From NCBI GenBank assembly GCA_965116885.1, contig OZ220741.1, positions 1,664,001 through 1,728,000 of the forward strand: DNA of 64,000 nt. The letters run 5' to 3'. A program made the position numbers and the translations under genes. Below are positions 1-16,516 of the stretch, in pieces. The notes under the pieces were generated by a model. It had not been told where the DNA came from and did no database searches. It was given only the letters and a program-made list of their open reading frames with translations. Each line of letters opens with the position of its first letter. Within the stretch, counting starts at the first letter, position 1. This stretch comes from Candidatus Latescibacterota bacterium (GTDB lineage: Bacteria > Latescibacterota > UBA2968).

Positions 1-229
1 CGGCGCCGTTCCAGAAGATGGCGTTGATATCATCGGCAATTGCCGTGTATGAATCGCCCATCCCCACGGCACGCGCACCCTGTCCGATTTTCAAAAACTG
101 CATGCCTGCAATGTTGACTTTTTTAACACCTTCGATCGCGGTTACGCCTTCCCATTCAAGCCCCAGAGCGGGACTGGCGATCAGCAGCAGGCTCAGGAAC
201 GCTGTAAGTATGAGATTTTTTCGTTTCAC
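1..229 (-). CDS. PorV/PorQ family outer-membrane beta-barrel (5' part; runs off window start)
   Basis: Not in ORF track. Manual translation from GTG at 229 (RBS GGAGGAGGT upstream): VKRKNLILTAFLSLLLIASPALG..AGMQFLKIGQGARAVGMGDSYTAIADDINAIFWNGA = signal peptide plus PorV/FadL-like N-terminal motif. Confidence 0.85.
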   Translation of the reverse strand, partial: MKRKNLILTAFLSLLLIASPALGLEWEGVTAIEGVKKVNIAGMQFLKIGQGARAVGMGDSYTAIADDINAIFWNGA

Positions 230-247
230 AATGAATACCTCCTCCGG

Positions 248-2668
248 CTACTTGATCACTACAAAAGTACCGCGCTGAATCTTGTTTTCGCTGCCCGGGG
301 TTTCGGATACGACGACGAAGTAGTACAGTCCGGTCTGGATTTCGCCAGCCAGATTATACGTCACCTGCCGAAACTGGGCTTCGCCCCGGTCTGGATTATC
401 GTGCGTGATGGTATAGACCCTGTCGCCAGAAGCCGAAAAGATGTGGATTTTGCACTTTTGGGGAATCCCCACAAAGCGCAGATTTCGGCTTCTGGGATAG
501 TTATGCTTGTCATCCACAAAATAGGGATTTGGCACCACTGTCACCTTTCGGTCGAGCTGATCGGTTTCGGTGGTGGTCGGTTGGAAGGGTCGTCTGTCAT
601 CGGCGTCGTAGGTGCGCGCAGTGGCAGGTCCCCAACCGCTCTCGTATCCACCCGTGGCATTGGCACGCGCCCTGCCCGTGGGCAGATCTCCTATTGCCAT
701 TCCGCCACCCATCCAGTTGCTATATCCGCTGTTGTAGGGTCTCACCGAGTAGTGGTATGCAAACCCGGCGGCGGTATCCTGATCTTCATACGTGTATTTC
801 CCGCCAGCGAGCGACCACTGGCCGTTGAGGCTGGATCCACTTTGCCCTTTTAGCACGGTGTCGTGCAATTTCCAGGGACCCCATCCGAACCAGGTGGAGC
901 GATAGACGCGGTAGCCCGCGATGTCCTGTTGCCCGGTGTAGGGATTTACTGCCCGGTCAGAAGCGTCTGTCCATGAAATCTGTTGCCGGGCAAATCCACT
1001 GGAAGTCAGATCATCGGGACCGATAAATGCGTTCGTCGGTGCCGGTGGATGGTGGAAATTGGAATCGTAAATAAAGTGCGCAAGTTGTAAATTCTCAAAT
1101 GCCGCTTGTTCGCCCAGGGTTTTGAATTCCTGGATCTTTGTTTCTACCGACACATCCGAACGGTCCCAGGTCAGGATATCCTGGTTCTTTATCTGAGCCG
1201 GGTGACCGGCGACATAAGCCATCACGATCTTGGCGCTTTCGCCCGCCCGAAGCGTGTACGGACCATAGACTTGCGAGAAAATGTAAAATTTTCGGTCATC
1301 TACGTTGTTCTCGTTCGGGTTGTCTTTGGTTCCCCCTTTTAGCATGTCACCAAACATCTGGGACTCGGTGTCTTTTTCCGTATAGGGATCGTCAAAGTCG
1401 TCTTTGGATCGCGCCTGCCACCACTGCGCCGAGAAGGGCTGGTCGCCCTGTGGCTGGACGTATTTGCCCATGTCCCGGGTGTTAAAGGCGTGTAGCCCCG
1501 GTGCATCGGTAAACGCGATGGGTGCCATCACGATGTGTTGTGGTGCTCGAAGCTGGCCTTCGGTTGCATCAATCGCATCCGAATCGGTATGGCCCAGTCG
1601 TTTGAAATACGGGTCGCCCGTGTCGTCGTATGGAGACAATGGGTTGTCGGAATCGCGGAAAATGCTCGCCTTATACCCGGGGTCAAACGCACCTGTGTAG
1701 TTGCTCGCATCGGAATAAAAATAGATATCATCCACACCGCGACCACCCGACGTCACATAACCATCCCAACCAAAGGCTTGCAGAACGCCCATTGCTGCGG
1801 ATACCCAGGAATTTACAAACGAAAAATAGATATCGTGCTGGGTAGGCGTGCCGCCGGGATTGTCTTCTTGTCCATCCCCGTCGAAATCACCCGTATTGGT
1901 GAAGGTCAGATCGACGAGATAAAAATCGTCGAAGTCCGGATGGCTCCAATTATAGACCCGCCGCGTTACCTGAATGCCCTGCTTGATGTGTACCCAGCGG
2001 GTGATGATGGTCTCTTCGGGGAGCGACAGATCGATGATATACCCGTGGAGATTGTAGTTTGCGATTACGAGAGGAACAGACGAAGACGGATCCAGGTCTT
2101 TCGAAAAATAATACCCGGGGTCCGCTGTTGTTATACCTGGCCAGTAATTGGACAACCACGGCAAGTCTTCGCCACCGCTCCAACTGGCAATGGCGGTTCC
2201 GGTGCTTTCAGACACTGGCACAGGCTGCACGCCCCAGTGTTCTTCTTCGTTGCCTCTGGGATCATAGGGCAATGGACGAATAAAATCCTTGATCCACGGG
2301 GAGGCCCTCGGTCCGGTCAAGCTGATTTGCCCGTCGGACGTCATGATCCACAAGCCATCGCCCATCGAGGTTTTGTAGTCGTTGTACACCTGGGATTTTG
2401 GACCGCTTGTAAATTGCGACAACACTTGTCCGAAAGAACCCGGCCCCACGCCATTGTGGGGATAGGCGTTTCGGTCGCCGCCGCGGTTGATCTCGGGATT
2501 GCCTCCCTGGATACCCATGTTGTTCCAGGAATTGGAGATCAATGCCCTGGTGTTTTCCCTGAAAGGGACTGTGTTCGGGTCGAATTGCGCTGTGGCATCG
2601 GTAGCTATAATAGCTCCTACCGCTGCGCATATTGCGACCCATCCTGTAAAAATTTTAAATCGCGTCAT
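248..2668 (-). CDS. Secreted 806-aa protein with FN3-like region and T9SS type-A-like C-terminal domain
   Basis: Signal peptide (ATA-QF); AGYRVYRS..Y.Y.D..YHYSVRPY FN3-like motif; C-terminal VVPNPY..IHIFSASGDRV..GLYYFVV..GTFVVIK; RBS upstream. Confidence 0.8.
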   Translation of the reverse strand: MTRFKIFTGWVAICAAVGAIIATDATAQFDPNTVPFRENTRALISNSWNNMGIQGGNPEINRGGDRNAYPHNGVGPGSFGQVLSQFTSGPKSQVYNDYKTSMGDGLWIMTSDGQISLTGPRASPWIKDFIRPLPYDPRGNEEEHWGVQPVPVSESTGTAIASWSGGEDLPWLSNYWPGITTADPGYYFSKDLDPSSSVPLVIANYNLHGYIIDLSLPEETIITRWVHIKQGIQVTRRVYNWSHPDFDDFYLVDLTFTNTGDFDGDGQEDNPGGTPTQHDIYFSFVNSWVSAAMGVLQAFGWDGYVTSGGRGVDDIYFYSDASNYTGAFDPGYKASIFRDSDNPLSPYDDTGDPYFKRLGHTDSDAIDATEGQLRAPQHIVMAPIAFTDAPGLHAFNTRDMGKYVQPQGDQPFSAQWWQARSKDDFDDPYTEKDTESQMFGDMLKGGTKDNPNENNVDDRKFYIFSQVYGPYTLRAGESAKIVMAYVAGHPAQIKNQDILTWDRSDVSVETKIQEFKTLGEQAAFENLQLAHFIYDSNFHHPPAPTNAFIGPDDLTSSGFARQQISWTDASDRAVNPYTGQQDIAGYRVYRSTWFGWGPWKLHDTVLKGQSGSSLNGQWSLAGGKYTYEDQDTAAGFAYHYSVRPYNSGYSNWMGGGMAIGDLPTGRARANATGGYESGWGPATARTYDADDRRPFQPTTTETDQLDRKVTVVPNPYFVDDKHNYPRSRNLRFVGIPQKCKIHIFSASGDRVYTITHDNPDRGEAQFRQVTYNLAGEIQTGLYYFVVVSETPGSENKIQRGTFVVIK

Positions 2669-2740
2669 AGTATTCCTCGCCCTCCTTCAATGGGTTTCGG
2701 AAAGGGTATGCGAGTGGGCACGACCCACTCGCACAACCCG

Positions 2741-5700
2741 CTACCAGTTAAATCGCACGCCTACCTGGGTCAGCCTGGGTGTGCTCGCATAAGAGCGATC
2801 GCGCACATCGCCGTATTGCAGGTAGGTGCTGTCGGTCGGCCGGGGTCCGTCAACCCCGTAGTAGGTATAGTCATTCCTGTTGGTCGGGCTTGTCCGGTCT
2901 TTCTGATTGAACAGATTGCGTATATCCAGGAAGACCGAGGTCTGAACCCGGGACGTCATAGCAAAGGTCCTTTCCAGTGCCAGGTCTGTTCGAGAGTCCA
3001 TAGCCAGTTCGCGGTAGGGCCGCACGCCACCTTCTGGCGGGGCATAGCGGAACAATCCTCCCGTTTCGACCCGCGTGACCAGGTTGATGCGCATATTGCG
3101 CAATACCTTGCTGACGATGGCACCGCCCCGTTCGTAATCGGCAGGGAAAGATGCCAGCATTGAGGCACTGCCAAATTGCCGTCGATCTCCCGCACGAGGT
3201 TTCAGGAATAGCTGCGTATAACCGCCGGTGAGCAGGTAAACGCCTTTATCCTCGGGTACGCCCTCAGCGGGGCGCATGCCATCCCATTCGCCCGTACCCA
3301 GAATTCTGCCATAATACAGGGCATCACCATTCGATTCGAAGCGATTACCTGCTCGAACAGCGTATAGATCGATGTCTTCCTGCGACATCATTCTGGGGAT
3401 TTCGCTACCCGAAGAATGGCTGTCCCACTCCACCCACACATCGGGAACCGGCACGCCCAGCTCGGGATGCGTATAGGCAATATTAACAGCACCTTTTCTT
3501 ATGCCTTGTTCATCCATATAGGCTCTGCGTATCACATTGCCTCGCTTGCCCGTGGTGAATGACGCCCACTGGTAGTTGTAGGACAAATTGAATGAGAAAT
3601 TGTGGCTGAACCGCTTGCGCAATGCGAGTTCCACGCCCCGCGTATCCCCATAAGCACCGTTGTCCAGCGTGCGGGAATATCTCAGATGGCTGACGCGAGG
3701 TCCCCGCCAGTCTTCATTGGGATACCAGGTGAATTGCTCGACCTCGGAGCGATAATAAGCGGTTAGTGCTACGGTATAGTCCGAAACAAAGTTCCAGTCT
3801 GCACCCACTTCAAATGCCGTAGTTTTGGCGGGGCGCAACAGGTGCGTGCCATTTCGGCCGCTATAAGTGGTTTCGAGATTGTTGTAGCGTTCTGTATCGT
3901 CAATGCGGCCGTTGCCGTTGATATCTCTGTCTTCGGACTTGCCAGCTACCCAGAAGTCTTCGCCAAAGTAGAACCACAGATCGGCCCACTGCAGGTAAAC
4001 ACCTGACGAGAAGCGGAACTGCGCCCGTTCGGTGATGGGATGCGAAATCCCGATTCGGGGGCTAAACACCACGTGCCAGGGGGCTTGTGTTGACCATATT
4101 GACCCCTCATTATAGGCGTAATCTCGCGCCCGAGTATAGGTGCGAAGCATCTCGGAACCACGGAACCCGCCGTGCGTGATCCTGCGGGCATTGGGATTGA
4201 AGGCATCCATGCGCAATCCCAGGTTCACGATCATGCCTTCAAATTCCATCTTGTCCTGCACATAAGTATTGATGGAATACGGCTTGACGCCCTCGCCAAG
4301 TTGTCCCTCATCTGCTACAAACATCAGGTGTCGATCCGCAGGACTGGAATTGGCGATGATGGTCATCGCGATGTCCCGGCGCATAAATTCAATACCGCCC
4401 TTGAGCAGGTGGCCCTTTGTCACCTGAGAGGTCAGATCTACTTTAATACCCAGGCGATTGCGGTCGCCCACTTTCCAGCGGGCTGCGACTCGCCCGGTGT
4501 TAAACCAGTTGGCGTCGCCCCTGTTGTTGGCCGATGTTGCCTGATATACGCCGCTGGTATCTGTTAATGAGCGGCTGCGCGACACGCGCACTTCGTAAAA
4601 TGTTTTGGGCGAGAGCGTGTGGGTCACAACCAGATATTGCATTTCTTCGCTTTCTATGCGCCTTCCGGCTGCCGACCAATCTGTGGGCAAAAACAGATCT
4701 CTACCGCCATTGCCCAGGCCCCGATGCACGCCCGGAACCGAATCTGCAGTGCGGATCCAGGGATCGGCAACCCCGTCAGACCAGTATTCCCATCCCTGGT
4801 AAAGCCCGCCCAGCTTGAGCTTCAGATTTGGGCTTGGCCTGAAGGTGAAGCTGCCGGAGAGCGTCAGGTTGTCCGGTCCTGTGGGGATAAATTTGTTGAC
4901 GTCGTTATAAAATCCGGTCTGTTTGGATCCCGGATAGCGATTGGCCAGGCGGCCGTGTTTTGCCGTGGCGACAAAGGAGACATTGGTGCCAATGGGACCC
5001 GAGAGATTTGCCTCTGCATCCCAACCGCTGACTTCTGTGTAGTCTTCCCGGATATGCAGGGGTTCGCCAGCCAAATCTGTTAGCGTCATGTTGTTCAAAC
5101 CCAAATCGGGCCTGCGTTCCGTCAGCCAGTCGGGGTTGTCCCACTGCATTTTGTCCTGATGTTGGGGGGCGTCATAGACATTCATACCCCAGTGTTTTTT
5201 CCCGGCAGGCTCATAGCGAAATTCGCCCCAGCCATTGTACTGATTGCCACCGTCTTTTGTCACGATTTGTACAACACCGGCCTGTGCATTGCCAAATTCG
5301 GCGGGTGTTACGCCAGTGAGTACTGACAATTCCTGGATCGCTCCGCGGTTCACGGTTCGGAATTGTCCGCCAGCACCTCGACCATCGTTGTAGTTGATCC
5401 GTATGCCATCTACCATATAGGCAACGTCGCTACCCCAGGCTACTTCGCTGGAACTGGCGCCACTGCCACCGCGGCTACCGCGCAAGCGGTTGGCACCATC
5501 TACGGATACACCGGGTTGTAGTTGCAAAATTTCGGATGTGCTGCGCACGATGCTCAAAAGGCGTTCGGTTTCTTCGACAGTTACGGTGTATTTACTCGTG
5601 GTTTTGTCCGGTTCTACGAGTGGACGTTCGGCAACGACGACCAGTTCGCCGAGTTCGACAGCGGCTTCTTTGAGCGTGAAATTCACTGTGACAGTCTGAT

Positions 5701-5989
5701 CGACGATGATCAGGACGTCTTGAACCAGAACGGTCTCATAACCGACGAGCGAGCCGGTAAGGGTGACGCGCCCCGGGTCTGCCTGGATAATTGCGTAGTA
5801 TCCATCGGCATCGGTGACAGCGCCGCGCTGGGTGCCTCTAATGACGACGTTGGCGCCCGGCAGTGGCTGCCCGTTGGCATCTTTAACGACCCCGTTGACC
5901 TTACCCGTGCTGCCCGCCCACAGGTCGCCGGTTCCCGCAAATAGGAAACCGACGGCTATCAAACTGAAAAACAACAGTCTGTGCTTCAT
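2741..5989 (-). CDS. TonB-dependent receptor with N-terminal carboxypeptidase-regulatory-like domain
   Basis: Signal peptide; GKVNGVVKDANGQPLPGANVVI..G..TDADGYY; plug motifs LQLQPGV and AEFGNAQAGVVQIVTK; YVQDKMEFEGMIVNLGLR; FSPRIGISHPI; ends in RFNW. Confidence 0.93.
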   Translation of the reverse strand: MKHRLLFFSLIAVGFLFAGTGDLWAGSTGKVNGVVKDANGQPLPGANVVIRGTQRGAVTDADGYYAIIQADPGRVTLTGSLVGYETVLVQDVLIIVDQTVTVNFTLKEAAVELGELVVVAERPLVEPDKTTSKYTVTVEETERLLSIVRSTSEILQLQPGVSVDGANRLRGSRGGSGASSSEVAWGSDVAYMVDGIRINYNDGRGAGGQFRTVNRGAIQELSVLTGVTPAEFGNAQAGVVQIVTKDGGNQYNGWGEFRYEPAGKKHWGMNVYDAPQHQDKMQWDNPDWLTERRPDLGLNNMTLTDLAGEPLHIREDYTEVSGWDAEANLSGPIGTNVSFVATAKHGRLANRYPGSKQTGFYNDVNKFIPTGPDNLTLSGSFTFRPSPNLKLKLGGLYQGWEYWSDGVADPWIRTADSVPGVHRGLGNGGRDLFLPTDWSAAGRRIESEEMQYLVVTHTLSPKTFYEVRVSRSRSLTDTSGVYQATSANNRGDANWFNTGRVAARWKVGDRNRLGIKVDLTSQVTKGHLLKGGIEFMRRDIAMTIIANSSPADRHLMFVADEGQLGEGVKPYSINTYVQDKMEFEGMIVNLGLRMDAFNPNARRITHGGFRGSEMLRTYTRARDYAYNEGSIWSTQAPWHVVFSPRIGISHPITERAQFRFSSGVYLQWADLWFYFGEDFWVAGKSEDRDINGNGRIDDTERYNNLETTYSGRNGTHLLRPAKTTAFEVGADWNFVSDYTVALTAYYRSEVEQFTWYPNEDWRGPRVSHLRYSRTLDNGAYGDTRGVELALRKRFSHNFSFNLSYNYQWASFTTGKRGNVIRRAYMDEQGIRKGAVNIAYTHPELGVPVPDVWVEWDSHSSGSEIPRMMSQEDIDLYAVRAGNRFESNGDALYYGRILGTGEWDGMRPAEGVPEDKGVYLLTGGYTQLFLKPRAGDRRQFGSASMLASFPADYERGGAIVSKVLRNMRINLVTRVETGGLFRYAPPEGGVRPYRELAMDSRTDLALERTFAMTSRVQTSVFLDIRNLFNQKDRTSPTNRNDYTYYGVDGPRPTDSTYLQYGDVRDRSYASTPRLTQVGVRFNW

Positions 5990-6017
5990 AGCACGACCTC
6001 CTTAAAGGGTAAATGGT

Positions 6018-6731
6018 TTAACGCCAGAAATAAAACTTAACTCCGGCACCTATATCGAAAAACATTAACGGACGAGCGCGTTCCAGGTCGTAAAAGAGCA
6101 TGGGTCTCAATTCGCCCACTACGAAATTTAAGCGCCCGCGTACATCCAGGCTGATATTGTCGGTGACAAATGCCTCCATACCCGCACCCGTGGTGAGTGC
6201 AATGGTGGTGCGTTTGTCAACTTGCGGATCCATTACTGTATTTAAGTCTATTGGATCGCTGGTTTGAGCCGGCCATACCAGATTGCTATTTTCGGCGTTA
6301 TAACGAAAAAAGCCACCGCCGAGGGCTATGTAATGGCGATAGTCTTTTGCCCGAAATCCGTGTTGTCGATTTTCCTCACCCACAAAGACGAGCGCGTTTA
6401 CGGCTACGCTGTTGAAGGTCATTGTCGATGAAGCGTTGGGGCTGGTATATTCAAGGCCGTCAATCGGATATACAAATGGTTTGGACGCCAGTTTCCCGTT
6501 GTCGAATTTGGAATAGTGGTATTCCACTTCAACGGTCACGAGGTCGCTGGCTACATAGTTCACGTTTATGCCGTATTTCCCCGTCTGGTCGTAGCGGTCC
6601 CGCAAATTGGACAGGGGGACGTGGTAATTGGCAAATCCACCAAGCCCCCATCCGTTCTGCTGGGCAAACAAATCTCCCGGTACAAGTACCAATAATACGC
6701 CCACCAGGAAAGTAGTCAATGTGCGTATCAT
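6018..6731 (-). CDS. Outer-membrane beta-barrel protein (OmpA/OMP_b-brl-like)
   Basis: ATG 6731 with AAAGGAG RBS; signal peptide ending LFA-Q; alternating beta strands; C-terminal DIGAGVKFYFWR. Confidence 0.75.
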   Translation of the reverse strand: MIRTLTTFLVGVLLVLVPGDLFAQQNGWGLGGFANYHVPLSNLRDRYDQTGKYGINVNYVASDLVTVEVEYHYSKFDNGKLASKPFVYPIDGLEYTSPNASSTMTFNSVAVNALVFVGEENRQHGFRAKDYRHYIALGGGFFRYNAENSNLVWPAQTSDPIDLNTVMDPQVDKRTTIALTTGAGMEAFVTDNISLDVRGRLNFVVGELRPMLFYDLERARPLMFFDIGAGVKFYFWR

Positions 6732-6930
6732 AAACGCTCCTTTCTGCAGCTCAAAACTGCGGTGATGCAATTCTCTGTTATACGCTTGACGAGATACTAC
6801 AATGTGTTGACCCGGATTATTCAGTGCATTGGCCTCACCCCATTTCTTTGTTTAGAAATTTTAATAAAAGGTTAAAGAAAAACTTAATAATACTTAAAAA
6901 AACAACAATTTATACATAGTATTTCAGGTC

Positions 6931-6960
6931 ATGATAGCCCCATTTATATACACATGTCAA
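6931..6960 (-). promoter_or_regulatory. Sigma70-type promoter for OMP-TBDR-CTD-PorV operon
   Basis: Minus strand TTGACA-18 nt-TATCAT in an AT-rich intergenic region. Confidence 0.55.
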
Positions 6961-7020
6961 GCCTTTTTTGATTCGATTGTAATCTTTTGTAAAAAAATTT
7001 TCAAATCCTGTTGCGTGCTA

Positions 7021-8526
7021 TCAGGACGTCAATTTGTCGAACAGGTGTTTTACCTCTTCTTCTTTTTCCGGGGTGCGCGTTCCGATCCATCCTTCGCCGA
7101 AATACAAACACAAGCCGACTATGATTTCGCCTCCGGTATAGATTGCGAAATTGTCCGTTATTTGTACGAGGATGGCGTAGGTCAGCAGCCCGCCTGCGAG
7201 GGCGAATATCGCGCCCCGCGCTGTGGGTTTTCGGAAGAGCATGCCGAACATGAGCGGTATTGCTATGGGGGATAGGAGCGCTCCAAATATCTGGACAGTT
7301 GCCGTGAATACTTTTTCTGCTCCTTTGCTTTCAGTGATGATAATGCCTGTGATGATGATGGCTATTCCAAAGATCAATGTGACGATTTTTCCGACGCGGA
7401 AGAGTGTCTGCTGTGTCCATTCGCGCTTGATGTTGCGCTGATAGATGTCTTTTGTGAATACGGCGGCGAGCGCGTTGAGGTCGCTGTCGATCATGGACAT
7501 GGTGGCGGCAAACATGGAGCAGATGAGGAGGCCTATTAATCCGGGCATTAGTCCGGAGAGCATGTGTTGGGCCATTAATACGTAGGTTTGCTGGAGGTCA
7601 AAGCCGGGCAGGGGCGCGAGCGTTACGGGGTCGAAATATTCGGTGAGTAATAAGGGCGCGGCCCAGCCGGGTACGAAGATGACGATGGGATATAGCAGGT
7701 AGAGGAATCCCGAGAGGAGCGCGGCTTTTTGGGTGTCTCGTGGGTCGGATACGGATATAAATCGCTGCGCTAATCCCCAGGTGGCGCCGTTATAACTGAA
7801 GATTACGACGATTAGATAGACAAACCAGAAGTCTATCCCAATGCCCGCTTCTGCGTTGAAGAATGCGCCTCGTTCGGCGGGTAGCTGTTCCCACAGGGGG
7901 TTCCATCCTCCGATGTTGTCGAGTACGAGATAGAGGACGATTGTGCTGATTACGAGCTGGACGACAAATTGGATCAGGTCGGTTAATACCGCGGCCCACA
8001 GTCCGCCTATGAGGACATAAACTACGGTGATTATGCCTGCGACCAGTACGACGGGCAATACTGCCCAGCCCGTGACGGTTTGTACGACGACGGAGATCGC
8101 GTAGAGTTTGATTCCGAGGTCTATAAATTTGACGCCGATGCCACAGAATGCGACCAAAAAGCGCACGGAGTTGCCGTATCGCGCTTCGAGATATTCTACG
8201 GGTGTGAGCACTTTGAGGCGAGACCATCGCGGTGCCCATACGAGGCAGCCGATCATCATGGCGATAAAACACGATAGGGAGAATAGCGTCCACATGCTGA
8301 ATCCAGCGGTTGCCGCCCGTCCCGCAAAGCCCACAAAGACGACGGCGCTGTATCCGGAGACATGGTGGGATATGGCGGCCATCCACCAGGGCAGGTTGTG
8401 GCCGGCGGCAAAGTACGCATCTACGTCCTGCGATTTTCGTTTGGCAATGCCGCCGATCCAGGCCATGAGCAAGGCGTAGAGGAAGATGACGACAAAGTCT
8501 GTGGGTGATAGCATGTTCATGTCCAT
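7021..8526 (-). CDS. Sodium:solute symporter (SSS) family protein
   Basis: Many hydrophobic TM segments; YFAAGHNLPWW, TPVEYLEARYG, GGLWAAVLTDLIQF, QRFISV, AATMSMIDSDLN motifs. Confidence 0.92.
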   Translation of the reverse strand: MDMNMLSPTDFVVIFLYALLMAWIGGIAKRKSQDVDAYFAAGHNLPWWMAAISHHVSGYSAVVFVGFAGRAATAGFSMWTLFSLSCFIAMMIGCLVWAPRWSRLKVLTPVEYLEARYGNSVRFLVAFCGIGVKFIDLGIKLYAISVVVQTVTGWAVLPVVLVAGIITVVYVLIGGLWAAVLTDLIQFVVQLVISTIVLYLVLDNIGGWNPLWEQLPAERGAFFNAEAGIGIDFWFVYLIVVIFSYNGATWGLAQRFISVSDPRDTQKAALLSGFLYLLYPIVIFVPGWAAPLLLTEYFDPVTLAPLPGFDLQQTYVLMAQHMLSGLMPGLIGLLICSMFAATMSMIDSDLNALAAVFTKDIYQRNIKREWTQQTLFRVGKIVTLIFGIAIIITGIIITESKGAEKVFTATVQIFGALLSPIAIPLMFGMLFRKPTARGAIFALAGGLLTYAILVQITDNFAIYTGGEIIVGLCLYFGEGWIGTRTPEKEEEVKHLFDKLTS

Positions 8527-9483: not shown

Positions 9484-11883
9484 TCACGCTATTCGCCTAA
9501 TTTCTCCACGGCCAATGGTGTGCGTTTTGTCTTCTCCTGCGATTTTCACTTTTGCATGTTCGGAGCTGGAGACATAAAGTGCCCCGTCGGGTATGGCGTC
9601 TATCCGGGCGTCGCCTTCTATGTTCAGTATTTGGGTAGCGCGGAGCAGGCAGGCAGATTCGCCGCCGATGGGGATGCAGTATAGCACGCGGTCTCCGCGT
9701 GTTTCGAGGATGGCGCCGGGAAAGACTGGCAGTTGTTCGGTTCTGTTTGCGGTGAAAGTACATATTTGTTGTGTGGTGCCGAAGTTTGCGGCGGCGAGAT
9801 ATCCTTCGGCTATCAAGCCAATGCTGTTTTCTGATGCGATCAGAATGTCGAAGGGGGTACCGGGTGTGTCGGCGGCGGTTTGTTCGGGGATTAACAGGGC
9901 TGTTAAGCGGCCCGCTTCTTCGCCCGCACGAAGGGGTTTTTCGCCTGTTAGTCGGGACAGTGTGAGGTCGTCGGCTATGGCGCGGTAGGGGTTGAAGTAG
10001 TGCCGGTTGTGATAGACTGTGTCGCCATTCCCGGTAAAGTGTATGCCCAGGCGGTTGTCTATGTTGAGATAGGGGGGATGGCCCAGGTTGTCGATTATGT
10101 CGTCTGCTTCGGTTTCGCCGTGCCAGCCCGCGTACCGGGTTTCGCCGTTGGGGTGATATAGCGCGCGTTCTCCGCGGCAGTTGGGAGCCATGTGTGAGAA
10201 GTGTTCGTTGGTGATGCGCAAAAATCCCTGGTTGAGTTCTTCCAGTACGAGGTCTTCCCGGGCGGTGAATTTTTCAAAAGATAGGATGCGGCCATCTGGC
10301 AGGCTGGCAAAGAGTACGTGTTGCCGCAGGGATTCCTGGCAGCGGTCTATTATTAGGGCTGCTGCAAAGCTGTCGTCGTATTCGGCAACGCGCACGGTTT
10401 TGAGGCGGTGGCTGTCGGGGCGGTTTTGTACGATGGGTGTGCCGAGCCAGGTGTCTGAACAGGGGGCGATGGTGTAGATGCCTTCTCGCGTCAGGGGCAG
10501 GGCCATGATGGAGTTGCGCCAGGCAAATGAGGTCTGTCCGTGCGGGTGTCTGTGGTGTACAAATCCCGCGTGGGGGAAGTGGCGTACGCCCGAGAGGCGC
10601 GATTCCATTTCTGCGGTGGGTGAGGGGGATGGCCCTGATCCAAAGAGGCGATGGAATAGATACAGACTGGCGGCGCCCGAGATTGAGACTTCGCGCATGA
10701 TCATGGGGTCTTGCTGATCGTGGGCTTTCAGGGCGAGGTCCTGATCGTACATCCGTCCCCCATTTCCGCGCTGACGTAGTTCGGCATGTTCCAGTCCCAG
10801 GTGTTCCAGGGCTGCGGCGTCCGCGTCGTCGAAGAATACGGCGGCAATCGCGTGCGCGGAAATGGTTGCGAATATGTTTAGATAATGCCAGTCCATTCCC
10901 TGAACAGCCTGGGCATATCCGCCGCCGTCGGTGAGTGCTTTCAGGTTTTCGTACACGCGCTGTTTGTTCCAGAAGAGTTCTGGCGGCAACTCGCGGCCCC
11001 AGAGTTGATGCAGACAGCCTACGCTCATCAGGGGAGAGAGGCCCGAAGCCGTGTAGCTGGGGTGGACCATGCCGTGGTTTTCCGCGAGGTAATCGGGTAG
11101 GGCAGTAAAGATTTTTGCGGTCAGGGTTCGCGCGGTTTCACTACCTACGAGGCCGAGGTCTTTGGTGTCTTGCGGCGCGGCGCAGGTGGAGAACATCCAT
11201 CTGCGGGCGGTTGCTTCCCATATTGCGGCGTCCGCGTGTTCGGATAGGAAGAGGAAGCAAGAGGTGAGCCCGTGAGAGGTCCAGGCATTTTCTTCCATCT
11301 GTGTGTCTGTATAGACGCCGCTTTTGGGTGCCATGTTGCCGAACCGCGCGGCGTAGTCTTCATGTACGCGGGCGACCATCATCCATGTTTCTTCATCGAT
11401 CCATTCCCGCAGTAGCAAGCAGACGTGCGCGAGGCCAGCGACGGTGCTTCCGCACTGGCTTTCGCGGAAGAAGCCTTTGCCCCGTTCACCCCATTTGGTG
11501 CCGCAGTTTTCCGAGCGGCCCAGTCCTTCTTGTGGACGCACGCAGTCCTCGGGACCGGAGTCGTGCGTGAAACAGAGGTAGCGCACGCCTTTGATCGCCA
11601 TTTCCCGCAGGGCGTCGCGGGATACGCCCGTGGATGTCTCGTCGTATTCTGGCGACGTACTGGCGTAGGCAAAGGTTTCGGCACAACTGATGGTTTCGAT
11701 TCCGTACCAGTGACATCCGCCAAAGAAATGCCCGCAGTTGGGGCGGTCGGGCCAGTCGGCAAAGTACGCGATGCCCGTTGGAATCCACTGTTCGATCATC
11801 CGAAGATAACGGCGACTCATTTCGTTTTCAGTGTCGGGAAGGTGCGGATGCTGCAGGTCTGTGGTGTCGGTCATGCGTGCCAT
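9484..11883 (-). CDS. Hypothetical 799-aa cytoplasmic protein, possibly polysaccharide-lyase-like (alpha-toroid plus beta-sandwich)
   Basis: Long ORF with AGGAG RBS; TQMEENAW, ENHGMVHPSY, QGMDW motifs; helical N-half and beta-rich C-half; next to heparinase-like gene. Confidence 0.6.
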   Translation of the reverse strand: MARMTDTTDLQHPHLPDTENEMSRRYLRMIEQWIPTGIAYFADWPDRPNCGHFFGGCHWYGIETISCAETFAYASTSPEYDETSTGVSRDALREMAIKGVRYLCFTHDSGPEDCVRPQEGLGRSENCGTKWGERGKGFFRESQCGSTVAGLAHVCLLLREWIDEETWMMVARVHEDYAARFGNMAPKSGVYTDTQMEENAWTSHGLTSCFLFLSEHADAAIWEATARRWMFSTCAAPQDTKDLGLVGSETARTLTAKIFTALPDYLAENHGMVHPSYTASGLSPLMSVGCLHQLWGRELPPELFWNKQRVYENLKALTDGGGYAQAVQGMDWHYLNIFATISAHAIAAVFFDDADAAALEHLGLEHAELRQRGNGGRMYDQDLALKAHDQQDPMIMREVSISGAASLYLFHRLFGSGPSPSPTAEMESRLSGVRHFPHAGFVHHRHPHGQTSFAWRNSIMALPLTREGIYTIAPCSDTWLGTPIVQNRPDSHRLKTVRVAEYDDSFAAALIIDRCQESLRQHVLFASLPDGRILSFEKFTAREDLVLEELNQGFLRITNEHFSHMAPNCRGERALYHPNGETRYAGWHGETEADDIIDNLGHPPYLNIDNRLGIHFTGNGDTVYHNRHYFNPYRAIADDLTLSRLTGEKPLRAGEEAGRLTALLIPEQTAADTPGTPFDILIASENSIGLIAEGYLAAANFGTTQQICTFTANRTEQLPVFPGAILETRGDRVLYCIPIGGESACLLRATQILNIEGDARIDAIPDGALYVSSSEHAKVKIAGEDKTHTIGRGEIRRIA

Positions 11884-12005: not shown

Positions 12006-15000
12006 TCACCCCTTCACCCACTGATAATCAACGCTCGCATACACGGTCTCGATTTCGCCATTGACTATGCGAAGGTGTACGGCGTTTTGTATTTCGCACG
12101 GGTCGCCTGTGGAAATATCATAAACAAAGCCTTTTTGGTAATCCTCGCGGGATACGAGGCCGCGGATGAAGGAGGTGTCGCCTACTTCTACGCGTACTTT
12201 ATTTTTTTCTAAAGGCACGATGTCGGAGATGGTGTAACAGGCGTCTCGGATTCCGTCGTTTAAGACCCGAAGTTGTGTGCCTATTAGCCGTTTGTTCGGG
12301 GGGAGGTCGCCTTCTATTTTGATCCAGGCGGGTCCTGTTTCTTCGCGGTGAAAGTCCGTTACGGTGCCGCGGTGAGTTGGGTTGCTGATCTGCAGGGTTC
12401 CAGCGGTGGTATTCACCCGGGTTCCGCCGACTAAAAAGATGGATGTTTGTTTGTTGTCCTGGGATATGATTGCAAATCGTGCCGCGGCCGAGATGTTTTC
12501 GCCCAGGTTGAATACGCGGTTTGGGTCGTCTGATGACAGGATGTGATCTGTTCGACCTGTTGTGGTTGTTACCTTTATAGCCGCTGCTGTTAAGTCGCGT
12601 TCTTCCAATCCGAGGTCAATGCGGGTGGCGTCTGCTATATGAGGTTGGCTCTCGCGGTAAGGTTCTATGATGGAGGCAAAGAGGCTTTGCTCTGTACCGG
12701 TGTTGTGTAATAGTACGTAGCGGATGCGCCGGGGGTTGCCTGGTTTGTTTTGCGGGGGATCGCCCCAGGCCAGAGCCGCGGTTTCTACGTCGGACAATAC
12801 GCGGTAGCGCAGGTGCAGCGGGGTTTCTTCGTGCTGGGTTTTCCAGGTATCTATGAGTTTCCAGTCTGCCCACCATCCGGCTGCGGGCTTTGCGGCGCGG
12901 TGAACGCCGTAGAGGTAGGCAAAGCCACTGCCGCGGTAGCGTCCGTCGGGTGGTCCGTCGTAGTGGGTTCCAAAGGGGATGGTTTCGCCCGCGTATGTTC
13001 CCTTTTTCTGTGGGGTGAGGTCGATTCCATGTGCGTTTACGTCGCCTTCTCCGGCGTGGAAGCTCATGACGTGGTCATTTCCGCCATGTACGCGGAAAAA
13101 ATCGACGAGATAGGATTCTGTGGGCGATACGTCGATCATTGCAAGAGTGCGCCGATAGTCCTGTACACCGGGATATACTTCGGGGGATGCGATTTCGACG
13201 ACGCCTATGCCCTGCGAGGCGGCAAAATATTGGCAGTGTCCAATCCAGTTCACTTCCTGTTGCTGCTGGTTTACCGTTACTGTGTTGTGCGAGATGGTAT
13301 TTGTTGTCCAGCCCGCTCGTTTGGGCCATTTGCTGTCGGCGTATTCGGGGTATCCCAGGTCGGGCAGTACGTCCATTCCGCGGTAGTACATTCCAAAGTT
13401 CAACCGGTCTTTGTGACCGTGTCCACCGTTGCGTCCGTAATATAACCAGGCCGCCCGCTGGTCTTCTCCTTTGCCATGCCGAAATACGGTCAGTCCGTAT
13501 CCGTTCAGGTTTTCGCTTTTGAGTTCTAATTCGCCTTGTTGTTTTACGATTTCGAGGACGGTTTTCTGGATTGCTTCGGGGTCGGCGTCGCAGATGGAGG
13601 TGTGCAGTCCGTCGGTGCGGTTTCCGTTGAGTTTGTACGCGAGGCGCGCGAGGTCGGGGTCACCAAGCCGGGCAAAGGCGCTGATGACTGTTTCGAGATC
13701 TACACTTACCATGCCTTCGCCTCCGGTGTTGCCGGTGTCGCCGATGTGAGGGGTGTAGCGGTCCAGTGCAGTGAGGCGATAGGGCGCGCTGTACATGCGC
13801 TTGAGGCGGGGATAGTCGCGGTATAGATCGAAATCTCGATATTTGCGACACCGATCCAGTATCCAGGCACAGCGGGCAAATGCGTTCATCCAGCCGAAGC
13901 AATAGCCGGGGGCTGCTTCGTTGCCAACGCCGTCTCGATCCACTTCTCCGATCAGGGTTGCCGGGATGTGTCCCCCACCAGTGCCCCGGGATTCTCCGGG
14001 TTCAAAGAGCCAGTCGAGTGCTTCGGGCGTTTCCTGTGGGTCGTCCAGTACTGCCGCGACTGTGGCCATGGCGGTTTGGGTCATGCCTTCGTTGCCGCGG
14101 ATGCGTCTGTCTCGACAGGAGCGTATGAATTCTCGGAGGAGTCCGCGTTCGATGTTTTCGCGGATGTGGGCGATGCTCGTTTTGGGTTGTGTGATTTGCC
14201 ATTTTTCCGCTTGTGCGGATAGGAATTTGATCAGGTCCTGGTCGTTTTCTATGCCTTCGGAGATCATGTCGCAGGATAGGGATAGGGTTTCTGCCATGCC
14301 GTTTTCCCATATACAGCCTTTGATGCGGCCCATGCCCGTGCCGCCGTGGGAGTTGTAGAGGCCCAGGTCCGAATAAGGGGTTAAGTCCATGTTGGGATAT
14401 ACGTCTGCAATGCGGTCGAGGATGACGGCTCCTTTGTGGGCATAGGCGGTGTCGCCCGTGTAGAGATACGCTTTGCCCAGGGCGAGTGCCGCTGCTGGCA
14501 ATTCGGTCCATGTGCAATAATGGCTGTAGTAGGCGATGAACCACCAGCGGTTTCCCGATTCGTCGATCCAGCCCATGCCGTCATCTACTGCGAATTGGGG
14601 ATCATTGGGGTGTTCGGCGTTGTATAGCAGGGATTCATCGGCGAGTTTGCGGTCGAAGACGCCTCCGGATCCCAGACCGCTTTTGTAAAATGCCTCAAAG
14701 TCGTTTTTGGGCCAGATTTCTCCGCACGACGGACATTCGAGTTTATAGGGGCGGTGCAGCGATACTTTCCAGGGGTAGTTGCCGAATGCATAGACGTCTC
14801 GGCCGCATTCGGGACAGCCGAGGTCGGGATTGACGTGGATGCCGCGGGGAATGGATTGTCCGGTGATCAGGTCCCAGATTTCTTCATCACTTCGCGCCAT
14901 ATAGGGCGCGCATGTTTCGATTGCGGTATCTCGCTCGGCTTTTGCCCAGGCGTAGCGTTGGATATTTCGCCGGGCATTGTTTATTTCTTTGGGGGTGTAT

Positions 15001-15008
15001 AGTCTCAT
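12006..15008 (-). CDS. Heparinase II/III-family lyase-like protein
   Basis: GHGHKDRLNFG..DVLPDLGYP..TISHNTVTVN and YLVDFFRVHGG motifs; PHIGDTG; N-terminal CPECG/CPSCG pair; no signal peptide. Confidence 0.8.
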   Translation of the reverse strand: MRLYTPKEINNARRNIQRYAWAKAERDTAIETCAPYMARSDEEIWDLITGQSIPRGIHVNPDLGCPECGRDVYAFGNYPWKVSLHRPYKLECPSCGEIWPKNDFEAFYKSGLGSGGVFDRKLADESLLYNAEHPNDPQFAVDDGMGWIDESGNRWWFIAYYSHYCTWTELPAAALALGKAYLYTGDTAYAHKGAVILDRIADVYPNMDLTPYSDLGLYNSHGGTGMGRIKGCIWENGMAETLSLSCDMISEGIENDQDLIKFLSAQAEKWQITQPKTSIAHIRENIERGLLREFIRSCRDRRIRGNEGMTQTAMATVAAVLDDPQETPEALDWLFEPGESRGTGGGHIPATLIGEVDRDGVGNEAAPGYCFGWMNAFARCAWILDRCRKYRDFDLYRDYPRLKRMYSAPYRLTALDRYTPHIGDTGNTGGEGMVSVDLETVISAFARLGDPDLARLAYKLNGNRTDGLHTSICDADPEAIQKTVLEIVKQQGELELKSENLNGYGLTVFRHGKGEDQRAAWLYYGRNGGHGHKDRLNFGMYYRGMDVLPDLGYPEYADSKWPKRAGWTTNTISHNTVTVNQQQQEVNWIGHCQYFAASQGIGVVEIASPEVYPGVQDYRRTLAMIDVSPTESYLVDFFRVHGGNDHVMSFHAGEGDVNAHGIDLTPQKKGTYAGETIPFGTHYDGPPDGRYRGSGFAYLYGVHRAAKPAAGWWADWKLIDTWKTQHEETPLHLRYRVLSDVETAALAWGDPPQNKPGNPRRIRYVLLHNTGTEQSLFASIIEPYRESQPHIADATRIDLGLEERDLTAAAIKVTTTTGRTDHILSSDDPNRVFNLGENISAAARFAIISQDNKQTSIFLVGGTRVNTTAGTLQISNPTHRGTVTDFHREETGPAWIKIEGDLPPNKRLIGTQLRVLNDGIRDACYTISDIVPLEKNKVRVEVGDTSFIRGLVSREDYQKGFVYDISTGDPCEIQNAVHLRIVNGEIETVYASVDYQWVKG

Positions 15009-15019
15009 CGCGATTCTCC

Positions 15020-16516
15020 TTATGGCGTGTCAAAGGCTTGTACGAAGATCAAGAAGTCGCCAAATCCCACTTTTCCGTCCAGGTCCAGGTCAAAGGGAGC
15101 GAATACAGTCGCGTATTCGCCTACGATTTTTCCATAGGCATTGGCGAATAGGAGAAAGTCTTCGAACCCTATTGTTCCGTTGCCGTCAAAGTCTGCGCTG
15201 CGGGAGGTGCTGGCTTTGAGAAAAAGCCGTCGAATAGTTTTGAAGATTTCGTCGTCGGGTGCTTTGGGCAGGGCGTAGGTTACGACGCCTTCACAAAAGC
15301 CCTGTCGCCTTTGTATCAGTGCCATTTTCACTTTGTCGCGGATGCGCTCGGCTGTGCCGGGTTCGCCGTTCCTTTTTACAAATTGGTATCGGGTTGCCGC
15401 TATCATGACGATCAGTGGTATGCGATACCTGCCCGCACCCTGATAGGCAGGTTCAAAGTTTACGGTCCAGCGTCCTTTAACTGTTTGTTGCCAGTTTTCT
15501 TCTGGTACGAGTCCCTGTGCAACGGGTTCCTGTATTTCTACAAGGACGGGAAAGTTGGATACGCGCTTGCGGTCATATACGCGAATGGTCAGGGTTATAT
15601 GTGTTTTCTGGTTTACCAGTGGGGCGAGGTTTAATTCTTCTGTTTGCCAGGCTTTTTCGCCGCCAGCCACGTCTTCTTCCCACGCGATCTGGTCATCTAT
15701 GAGCAATTGTTTGAAATGGTAGCCCGCTGTTGGTCCTTCATAGCTGTCTTGTTGCGTCAATCGAAGTGTATAGTGCTCGGCGTTGGGCAGTACGCGAAAT
15801 TGCCTCTGGAGACTTGCGGCGTCGCCTATTGCCGAGCGGGTGCGTTGGGGATAGAAGAATTGCCATCTCGCGGGTGTGTCTCGCTGGTCGTTGAGCAATT
15901 GCCATGTCCGTTGTACGGTTTGCGCGGTTTTGGGATAAGCCGCGACGACGCCGTCGATTGCATCCCCATAGTTTGCGACAAATGCCCGGTCCATTTCGGG
16001 GTAATACATCAGGGGCCAGAATTCCATGTTGGGGTTGATGGCCCGCGCTGTTTGGCGCATGGTGGATACATAGGCGGGGGTATATAGGTTTCGGTTGGCC
16101 CAGAAGTCGTCGATTACAAATGCTTTCAAGTTGGGATGGGCGAGTGATAATAGCGCGATTTCTTCTGCCCAGCGTATGTAATTTAGACGAAATGGTTCGG
16201 AATATCGCGTGCCGTAAATCGGGGGACTTTCTGTAGGCGGTACGAGATAGACCCAGGTGTCAATGCCCGCTTTTTGCGCTGCGGGCAAAAATAGTTTCAG
16301 GTCTTCCCAATCGGTTTCTCTGTGCCAGATGAGAAAGAAGTAGGTGTTGACGCGGAGTTCAGTCAAGCGGCGTATGAGTACGGGTATATCTACGCGACCG
16401 TCGCTTTCTCTTACTTCCGCGTTGTAATCGGCGATTACAGGCGGCGGGTTCGCATGCAGAGGCCCCGCGGTGAATACCAGTAGTATCCAGATCAGAACTT
16501 TCAATTTGTGAGTCAT
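15020..16516 (-). CDS. Secreted glycoside-hydrolase-like protein with inserted beta-sandwich and C-terminal dockerin/EF-hand pair
   Basis: Signal peptide LHA-N; TIM-barrel-like NTYFFLIW, AFVIDDF, IDGVVAAY; C-terminal DFDGNGTIGFEDF and DLDLDGKVGFGDF. Confidence 0.65.
   Translation of the reverse strand: MTHKLKVLIWILLVFTAGPLHANPPPVIADYNAEVRESDGRVDIPVLIRRLTELRVNTYFFLIWHRETDWEDLKLFLPAAQKAGIDTWVYLVPPTESPPIYGTRYSEPFRLNYIRWAEEIALLSLAHPNLKAFVIDDFWANRNLYTPAYVSTMRQTARAINPNMEFWPLMYYPEMDRAFVANYGDAIDGVVAAYPKTAQTVQRTWQLLNDQRDTPARWQFFYPQRTRSAIGDAASLQRQFRVLPNAEHYTLRLTQQDSYEGPTAGYHFKQLLIDDQIAWEEDVAGGEKAWQTEELNLAPLVNQKTHITLTIRVYDRKRVSNFPVLVEIQEPVAQGLVPEENWQQTVKGRWTVNFEPAYQGAGRYRIPLIVMIAATRYQFVKRNGEPGTAERIRDKVKMALIQRRQGFCEGVVTYALPKAPDDEIFKTIRRLFLKASTSRSADFDGNGTIGFEDFLLFANAYGKIVGEYATVFAPFDLDLDGKVGFGDFLIFVQAFDTP

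Follow-up and report, generated by a model that had tools for sequence, protein, structure and literature searches.

The 64,000-nucleotide window analysed here (C1:1664001-1728000) lies on the single contig (C1) of a 5.56-Mb genome (51% GC; completeness 98.4%, contamination 3.2%) from an uncultured, sponge-associated member of the Latescibacterota, and not of the Bacteroidota; two of its protein relatives carry the label Candidatus Handelsmanbacteria. Positions 1-6960 hold a cassette of four genes, all on the minus strand, which encode, in 5' to 3' order, a small outer membrane protein (OMP), a TonB-dependent transporter (TBDR), a protein that we call X, and a PorV-like barrel. The open reading frame (ORF) of the small OMP occupies 6018-6770 with a TTG at 6770, and AGGAG precedes the ATG at 6731, which is the likely true start and gives a gene at 6018-6731 encoding 237 aa. 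It is followed by the TBDR (2741-5989; 1082 aa), X (248-2668; 806 aa) and the PorV-like gene (332 aa; C1:1663231-1664229), whose first 76 codons fall inside the window (1-229). The gaps between the genes measure 28, 72 and 18 nt, so that the four co-oriented, tightly spaced genes described in the first-pass annotation are confirmed. We propose, at a probability of about 55%, that they constitute one outer-membrane uptake unit, a lipoprotein-free functional counterpart of SusC/SusD, for which we infer both the contact with the transporter and the substrate.

The arrangement is far beyond chance, because it recurs 13 times in this genome and again in other genomes, and on these recurrence counts a chance adjacency of the four genes was rejected. 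Recurrence was followed by tblastn, ORF maps and family hidden Markov models (HMMs) built from the paralogues (6641 ORFs), which located 13 TBDR-X-PorV cassettes with gaps mostly of 0-110 nt, 8 of them starting with a small OMP. Cassette members reach at least 780 bits on the TBDR family HMM, against at most 139 for 17 other ORFs, and at least 330 bits on the PorV family HMM, against at most 128 for 6 others; on the X family HMM they reach at least 363 bits, against 64.6 for one ORF (C1:817583-821161). Apart from this weak match, every X sits in a cassette or in a duplicated X-PorV pair, the cassette-type TBDR always occurs with an X in this genome, and each cassette copy possesses a private PorV paralogue, in line with the earlier suggestion of a dedicated PorV for X. 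Over all 13 cassettes, TBDR, X and PorV show correlated pairwise identities (r 0.87-0.89; 0 of 2000 permutations), and among the 8 closest cassettes the co-divergence of X and PorV still holds (r 0.675; 30 of 5000 permutations).

The PorV-family assignment of the last gene product, a 14-strand-type barrel of the PorV/PorQ family, was borne out when the whole protein was searched, since it scores 162.8 bits on the model NF033709 (PorV_fam; cut-off 90) over model positions 3-323 of 326, while the 76-codon fragment within the window gives 40 bits. It remains below the equivalog models of both PorV (NF033710; 64.7 of 250 bits) and PorQ (NF033711; 61.3 of 220 bits), and its profile finds the PorV of Flavobacterium johnsoniae in the PDB (6h3i_F; E 5.9e-26). 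PorP/SprF was rejected as the family of these barrels, PF11751 giving one marginal match (21.7 bits), to the barrel of cassette c12 only.

The C-terminal domain (CTD) of X (residues ~705-806; 251-556, minus strand), which is preceded by a linker, is modelled as a seven-stranded sandwich with strands at residues 710-804, and it contains PNP and GxY motifs which we take to be those of type-A CTDs, the tails of type IX secretion system (T9SS) cargo. A profile of 13 X tails aligned by hhalign with the 12 canonical CTDs of the same genome at 97.3% (E 2.1e-11, 71 columns). Weak matches of the X paralogues, all below cut-off, include the PorZ model over its final ~90 positions (8 of 13), TIGR04183 (4 of 13; 15.3-17.9 bits, cut-off 23), CHU_C (2 of 13; best E 0.00028), FlgD_ig (2 of 13) and the PorU tail (1 of 13), and Foldseek of the X model returned PorZ (5m11; E 7.8e-05, 134 columns, 22% identity). 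Because of the hhalign, PorZ-model and Foldseek matches, the tail is a diverged subclass of the type-A domain, closest to the tails of PorZ and PorU.

A complex of the cognate PorV-like barrel (38-row alignment) with X residues 690-806 was predicted in three runs beside 3 controls, and it scored 0.92 (runs 0.91-0.92) compared with 0.14 for the best control; 116 of 157 solved complexes attain that mark, as do 2 of 215 mismatched pairs. The pLDDT of the partners is at least 81 and the contacts agree between runs to at least 90%. Tail residues 710-715, 744-751, 774-787 and 795-806 contact the barrel in the prediction, and the interface includes the invariant V712-P715 (VPNP), G748, G780 and Y782. 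According to the review PMC10202324, PorQ and PorV retain the tails of PorZ and PorU. The tether of X by its PorV, which had been put forward for this locus, is supported by this predicted docking and by the likeness of the tail to the retained PorZ and PorU tails, from which we infer that the X tail would likewise be retained.

The same review has PorV shuttling type-A cargo and PorU cleaving the tails, and this genome encodes a PorU-like protein (1905 aa; 334.3 bits, cut-off 420). The PorV-like barrel might accordingly do no more than ferry X, whose tail would be cleaved and which would be released or lipid-linked like other type-A cargo, or it might be a FadL-like channel for small hydrophobic compounds, the PorV profile weakly touching the FadL-type OMP 3dwo_X (E 0.0064). 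We consider either version very improbable, as the genome already has a housekeeping-type PorV (C1:5709-6773; PorV_fam 229.5 bits; PorV equivalog 161.4 bits, under the cut-off of 250) adjoining a canonical, metalloprotease-like CTD cargo, one private barrel per X is unneeded for shuttling, and the X tails, a class distinct from the 12 canonical ones, come nearest to the two whose retention is known.

Ahead of its tail, X comprises a Sec signal peptide (residues 1-28; 2585-2668, minus strand), a beta-supersandwich (residues ~30-545; 1034-2581, minus strand) and a fibronectin type III (FN3)-like domain (residues ~550-650; 719-1021, minus strand), for which the Fn3-like 3mpc_A was the sole match in a PDB sequence search with X. 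The AlphaFold model (49-row alignment) has a pLDDT of 86.3 and a pTM of 0.89, and the domain ranges were taken from VIA-align and not from whole-model Foldseek, the TM-scores of which are low (~0.2) because one domain alone matches. In VIA-align the supersandwich matches the non-catalytic N-domains of the glycoside hydrolase (GH) families GH15 (glucoamylase), GH65, GH94 and GH116, most strongly 8rf9 (Z 18.5, rmsd 3.3, 261 aligned) and residues 34-275 of 1lf6_A (Z 18.2, rmsd 3.0, 236 aligned), at a sequence identity of 8-12% and with the matches ending at model residue ~545-598. X shares this fold with the N-domains of these enzymes, but they possess an (alpha/alpha)6 catalytic domain, whereas the X model consists just of supersandwich, FN3 and tail, and X has no sequence-family match with them; no Pfam or NCBIfam family at all was found in X above cut-off. 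No Cys, a lipobox Cys included, is conserved among the 13 X paralogues, so X is not a lipoprotein.

Some families, such as aldose 1-epimerase, use the supersandwich fold for catalysis, and X could be read as a surface enzyme comparable to SusG, a new catalyst of glycan-active or epimerase type based on a galactose-mutarotase-like supersandwich, which would cleave or convert the substrate ahead of TonB-dependent import instead of binding it. D339 and D349 are invariant and D313, D314 and D341 nearly invariant, and the cassette contains no separate endo-acting enzyme, both of which would suit such a role. Every strong structural match is, however, a non-catalytic N-domain, with the (alpha/alpha)6 domain absent, no enzyme family of Pfam or NCBIfam is matched, and the Asp-rich motif could equally bind calcium, which leaves an enzymatic X rather improbable in our judgement.

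The transporter itself has a signal peptide, a CarboxypepD_reg-like N-terminal extension (NTE; residues 31-118; 5636-5899, minus strand; CarbopepD_reg_2, E 5.3e-20), a Plug domain (PF07715; residues 131-239; 5273-5599, minus strand; 33.1 bits, cut-off 23.9, E 8.6e-08) and then a barrel region of ~840 aa, and these NTE and Plug matches substantiate the 1082-aa TBDR read at this position at the outset. NTE and Plug are present in 13/13 TBDR paralogues. TonB_dep_Rec_b-barrel (PF00593), the 22-strand barrel domain, gave no match at E<=0.1 in the window TBDR, and is matched by 2 of the 13 paralogues, which are homologous end to end (best E 4.7e-25), with OMP_b-brl_3/4 matches in others. The closest solved relative is the NTE and plug of the SusC homolog 8aa4_A (E 2.9e-14), level with the plugs of CirA and FepA, and a single-sequence PDB search returned a SusC NTE fragment as its sole match. 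Membership in the SusC/RagA family was nonetheless rejected, because the TBDR attains 89.5 of the 368.25 bits that TIGR04056 requires and matches just positions 2-207 of the 981 in that model, whereas the canonical SusC of this genome (C1:395721-398633) scores 536.5 bits. The ORF behind that SusC encodes 434 aa and carries the genome's single SusD_RagB match (29.2 bits; the pair spans C1:395721-399954, or L125:2721-6951), and no SusD-family match was found on the four cassette proteins or the 13 X paralogues. The description of the system as SusD-free is therefore correct for the cassettes, but not for the genome, which has one SusC/SusD pair.

Gene order is conserved well beyond this genome. 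A pattern scan of species genomes, with the closer paralogue set as query, yielded 110 stretches, of which 104 code for a relative; the analysis went on with the best 80 loci, whose labels are Latescibacterota, Gemmatimonadota, KSB1, Neomarinimicrobiota and a few others. They contain 82 X genes at a threshold of at least 300 bits. X is followed by PorV in 80/82, the two exceptions having 401 and 1454 nt of sequence left, and is preceded by the TBDR in 76/82: the distance rule finds 74 of these and misses two, L066 and L073, whose stop-to-stop frames overlap the TBDR. A small OMP is also present at 59 of the 82. Of 121 genomes sampled from the phylum, the X profile matched at least 81 (the best 8 candidates per genome being scored), among them 28 of 28 in the family of the genome studied here. 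In five genomes reached via the loci it gave 2 to 39 matches, many of them only to the FN3 and tail of larger proteins. For more distant comparison, 16 proteins with an X-type tail (1014-1438 aa) were picked from four other genomes where the contig left room: 12 have the order TBDR-X'-PorV, one TBDR-PorV-X', one is an X'-PorV pair at a contig start and two have neither neighbour, so that all three genes are kept in 13/16. The order of the triplet is in this way held over deep divergence. Two further observations on these distant relatives are that the X-type FN3 and tail module occurs on many proteins of 1000-1440 aa (genomes reached via L079, L084 and L087), and that the copy with the order TBDR-PorV-X (L128; G124:C78:23377-33685) lies on the minus strand.

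These counts bear directly on whether X and PorV belong with the transporter at all. They could instead be an autonomous surface-display pair, serving as adhesin, S-layer-like coat or in host interaction and merely co-transcribed with the TBDR, for which X would be neither lid nor donor of substrate, and proteins built of FN3 and beta-sandwich domains are commonly adhesins. The predicted complex and the fine-scale co-divergence support the X-PorV link alone, six X genes in the other genomes have no TBDR in front of them, three of these with at least 2.9 kb of upstream sequence, and this genome has an X-PorV pair without TBDR or OMP (C1:2281567-2285280) ~1.8 kb downstream of cassette c13. The latter is an apparent recent duplicate, because its tblastn and HMM scores equal those of the cassette c3 pair (C1:210087-213797). 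Against an autonomous pair, 76/82 X genes stand directly behind a cassette-type TBDR and the other three of the six exceptions lie at the start of their locus, 13/16 very distant copies keep the TBDR, and in this genome every TBDR of the clade comes with an X. We therefore regard a display pair as unlikely, and retain the interpretation that X, its barrel and the TBDR operate as one uptake unit.

The small OMP, first annotated as a small beta-barrel, is indeed predicted by AlphaFold2 as an 8-stranded barrel of OmpA/OmpW/NspA-like type (pLDDT 91.5). VIA-align matches it to 9nh2_A (Z 19.0, rmsd 4.1, 186 aligned), NspA (1p4t, Z 18.9), the N-domain of OprF (4rlc, Z 18.1) and OmpW (2f1t, Z 17.9), and Foldseek to the transmembrane domain of OmpA (9fzd, E 1.9e-10), with 21 bits on Pfam OMP_b-brl, under the cut-off of 28.7. 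The family is confined to 8 of the 13 cassettes (296-335 bits), with no stray copy among the 6641 ORFs, and its members may be an accessory subunit of one cassette subfamily.

On the 5' side of the OMP gene, a 250-bp AT-rich gap contains two sigma-70-like promoter candidates on the minus strand, the better one at 6960..6931 (TTGACA-18-TATCAT, 11/12 positions) and the second at 7004..6976. The single promoter proposed for the four genes has these sites in its favour, the best matching 11/12, but promoter-like sites in the region are not above shuffled sequence (8 found, 5.7 expected). A search for intrinsic-terminator-like sites found none behind the PorV gene and, between the genes, 7 where 7.5 are expected by chance. 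Runs recorded as RNA from sponge metagenomes share up to 0.80 of the sequence words of the stretch, and contigs of four of these RNA runs, from two sponge studies, were compared with window positions 1-7400. The contigs cover all four cassette genes: one of 6457 nt spans 455-6903 with ~2% differences, and one of 6493 nt spans 1-5430 and runs 1063 nt past the window start. Some bins are without contig cover in single runs, such as 2471-2717 in run X1 and 1-988 in run X7. The contigs of the four runs end within ~6772-6997, several with short loose ends, and positions 7164-7400, inside the symporter gene, have no contig cover in any of the four runs, a gap that speaks against simple carry-over of DNA and agrees with a start close to the promoter-like sites. 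The contig ends at 6772-6997 give a weak hint of a transcript start.

Directly upstream of the cassette and on the same strand lies a gene for a sodium:solute symporter of the SSF family (7021-8526; E 5.5e-43), followed by genes for an isochorismatase-like protein, a 799-aa protein matching no Pfam family (9484-11883), a 1000-aa protein with a heparinase II/III-like C-terminal domain (12006-15008; Hepar_II_III_C, E 1.9e-12) and a 498-aa protein with C-terminal EF-hands only (15020-16516), all on the minus strand. The glycan-lyase cluster reported beside the cassette was overstated, as a single Hepar_II_III_C protein is present together with the symporter, the isochorismatase-like protein and two unassigned proteins; the latter, of 799 and 498 aa, are encoded on either side of the heparinase II/III-like gene and might act on glycans without having been recognised as such. 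Across the genome, the flanks of all 13 cassettes were scanned out to 7 kb (113 additional ORFs), and sugar- or sulfate-related genes were found near 7/13, encoding UxuA, GH4, sulfatases, formylglycine-generating enzyme (FGE), a pectate-lyase-like beta-helix, 3-keto-disaccharide hydrolase, GFO/IDH oxidoreductases and MFS_2/SSF carriers.

Membrane proteins of ~650-700 aa with DUF6785 and DUF6784 domains number 40 in the genome, including one in the window (16670-18658, plus strand) and one at C1:1652347-1653849 (minus strand). Such a DUF6785 protein lies within 10 kb of 10/13 cassettes (5000 random placements averaged 2.3 and never exceeded 8), and within 5 kb of 5 cassettes (random mean 1.5, maximum 6). 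They may be inner-membrane carriers for what the cassettes import; a full-text literature search found no mention of DUF6785. Other gene types also appear in the flanks. Eight ORFs of PhyH type (phytanoyl-CoA dioxygenase-like) lie near cassettes c2, c5, c6 and c9 (flank loci L097, L098, L103, L104, L105 and L112). Large proteins with multihaem cytochrome c motifs and HEAT repeats, two of the three also with TPR repeats, stand beside c3, c6 and c8 (L100:1680-4493, minus strand; L105:1090-3297, minus strand; L109:5118-6953, plus strand), and an IS605 OrfB/TnpB-type gene (OrfB_IS605 with a Cas12f1-like TNB; L111:912-2030, plus strand) lies ~5 kb from cassette c9.

Our data suggest how such an uptake unit might be assembled. 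X, whose signal peptide can be seen in the sequence, would be exported by Sec, and its type-A-like CTD would then take it through the SprA translocon and across the outer membrane; SprA is encoded in this genome (2081 aa; 633.7 bits, cut-off 200). The tail would stay uncut and docked on the PorV/PorQ-family barrel, as PorZ does on PorQ and PorU on PorV in Porphyromonas, and this tether would place the supersandwich and FN3 domains at the cell surface beside the TBDR. There the supersandwich, a fold of carbohydrate-binding type, might capture a glycan and pass it to the TBDR for TonB-powered import, and the 13 diverged cassettes would correspond to 13 substrate specificities, as multiple polysaccharide utilization loci (PULs) do. 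The heparinase II/III-like gene, the Na+/solute symporter and the sponge habitat suggest that the window cassette takes up an acidic or sulfated glycan derived from the host or from seawater, and this is the weakest step of the scheme. Export via SprA, tail retention, contact with the TBDR, glycan binding and the substrate are all conjectural steps. The earlier view of a SusCD analogue built from T9SS parts is upheld in so far as it draws on the private PorV, the predicted docking of the tail, the lack of SusD in the cassette and the conserved gene order.

Several results weigh against this interpretation. The tail of the window X has no TIGR04183 match at E<=0.1, and in a search of the genome with that model 12 canonical tails but none of the 14 X tails (0/14) lie above the cut-off, so that the type-A-like CTD originally annotated holds as a homologue of the canonical CTDs while falling short of their family model. 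The score of the barrel and tail may reflect likeness to solved PorV complexes (the 6h3i and 8gl6 family) and not the binding of this particular pair. A supersandwich fold is no proof of sugar binding, and 6 of the 13 cassettes are without recognisable sugar genes within 7 kb. The co-divergence over all 13 cassettes is what whole-cassette duplication alone would give, and among the 8 closest cassettes neither TBDR and X (r 0.376; 872 of 5000 permutations) nor TBDR and PorV (r 0.341; 621 of 5000) are significantly correlated; co-divergence of the three families is thus seen over the full set and, for X and PorV, also in the closest 8, but not there for the TBDR with either. The physical link between X and PorV is accordingly better supported than that to the TBDR, which rests on gene order. 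The small OMP does not track the divergence of the other three families (r 0.09-0.34, n=8), and its role is unexplained by the model. Contigs from RNA libraries may include DNA, and they are no proof of one single transcript.

The secretion route adds to these difficulties, being only partly documented, because SprA is present but the GldK, GldL, GldM and GldN models found nothing. The GldK model gave partial FGE-domain matches only (at most 140.5 bits, cut-off 350), and the best GldK-like ORF was rejected as GldK, as it is an FGE/EgtB-type protein without gldLMN neighbours. The GldL, GldM and GldN models have no match above cut-off in the genome and are silent in all 14 control genomes too, so that these negatives are not evidence of absence, and Pfam GldM_1st had no match above cut-off in 9 relatives. 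Of the T9SS components sought under the names sprA and porKLMN, the first was found, and the models for the others gave no match above cut-off. The motor and ring may be too diverged for the models used, or export may work without them.

Compared with the SusC/SusD (RagA/RagB) systems of Bacteroidota PULs, the cassette is alike in having the gene of an NTE- and Plug-bearing transporter directly before that of a surface protein, in many diverged copies per genome, several of them among sugar-degrading or transport genes. It differs in that the partner SusD is a helical lipoprotein, whereas X is a non-lipoprotein composed of beta-supersandwich, FN3 and CTD, in that two barrels are added, one PorV-type and one 8-stranded, and in that the TBDR fails the SusC/RagA model. 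In the T9SS attachment complex of Porphyromonas gingivalis, the pairs PorQ-PorZ and PorV-PorU resemble X and its barrel in that the CTD of the secreted protein is predicted to stay on a PorV/PorQ-family barrel, and the best family matches of the X tails are the PorZ and PorU tails; here, however, the genome has 13 such pairs, every one private and linked to a transporter, X is unrelated to PorZ or PorU in its N-terminal parts, the barrel is neither a PorV nor a PorQ equivalog, and the retention of the tail is presumed for X. Cognate barrels encoded beside type-B cargo, for which an anchoring role is proposed in PMC10202324, as with SprB-SprF of Flavobacterium, likewise place a dedicated barrel gene next to the cargo gene, but these combine a PorP/SprF barrel with a type-B tail, whereas the X cassette has a PorV/PorQ-family barrel and a type-A-like tail.

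In one bacterial phylum, the textbook route for the capture and import of complex glycans is SusC/SusD, and how the many related uncultured phyla do so was previously unclear. Our full-text literature searches returned no text that describes such a cassette, and none of the terms PorV, T9SS, type IX, Latescibacter and Gemmatimonad occurs in a review of glycoside transporters from 2026. The cassette joins two known principles, TonB-dependent import and T9SS-tail anchoring on a PorV-type barrel. As a tentative and still doubtful extension, several phyla outside the well-studied Bacteroidota could have, as their main means of capturing nutrients, four-part, lipoprotein-free 'utilisomes', in which a substrate-binding lid installed by the T9SS translocon is held on the TBDR via its uncleaved tail and a private PorV, with an 8-stranded subunit and DUF6785 proteins as inner-membrane permeases, perhaps without recognisable GldKLMN; going by record titles, these would be Latescibacterota, KSB1 and Marinimicrobia, and, according to leads from the ESM Atlas, also Gemmatimonadota, Ignavibacteriota and some Bacteroidota. 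If the proposal is true, the cassette would be a marker for nutrient-uptake loci ('PULs') in Latescibacterota, KSB1, Marinimicrobia and their relatives, PorV-family barrels would gain a role as permanent anchors for uptake machines beyond that of helpers in secretion, and the cassette would offer a natural test of whether T9SS-type export works without GldKLMN, as well as hints of what the sponge symbionts of this phylum take up.

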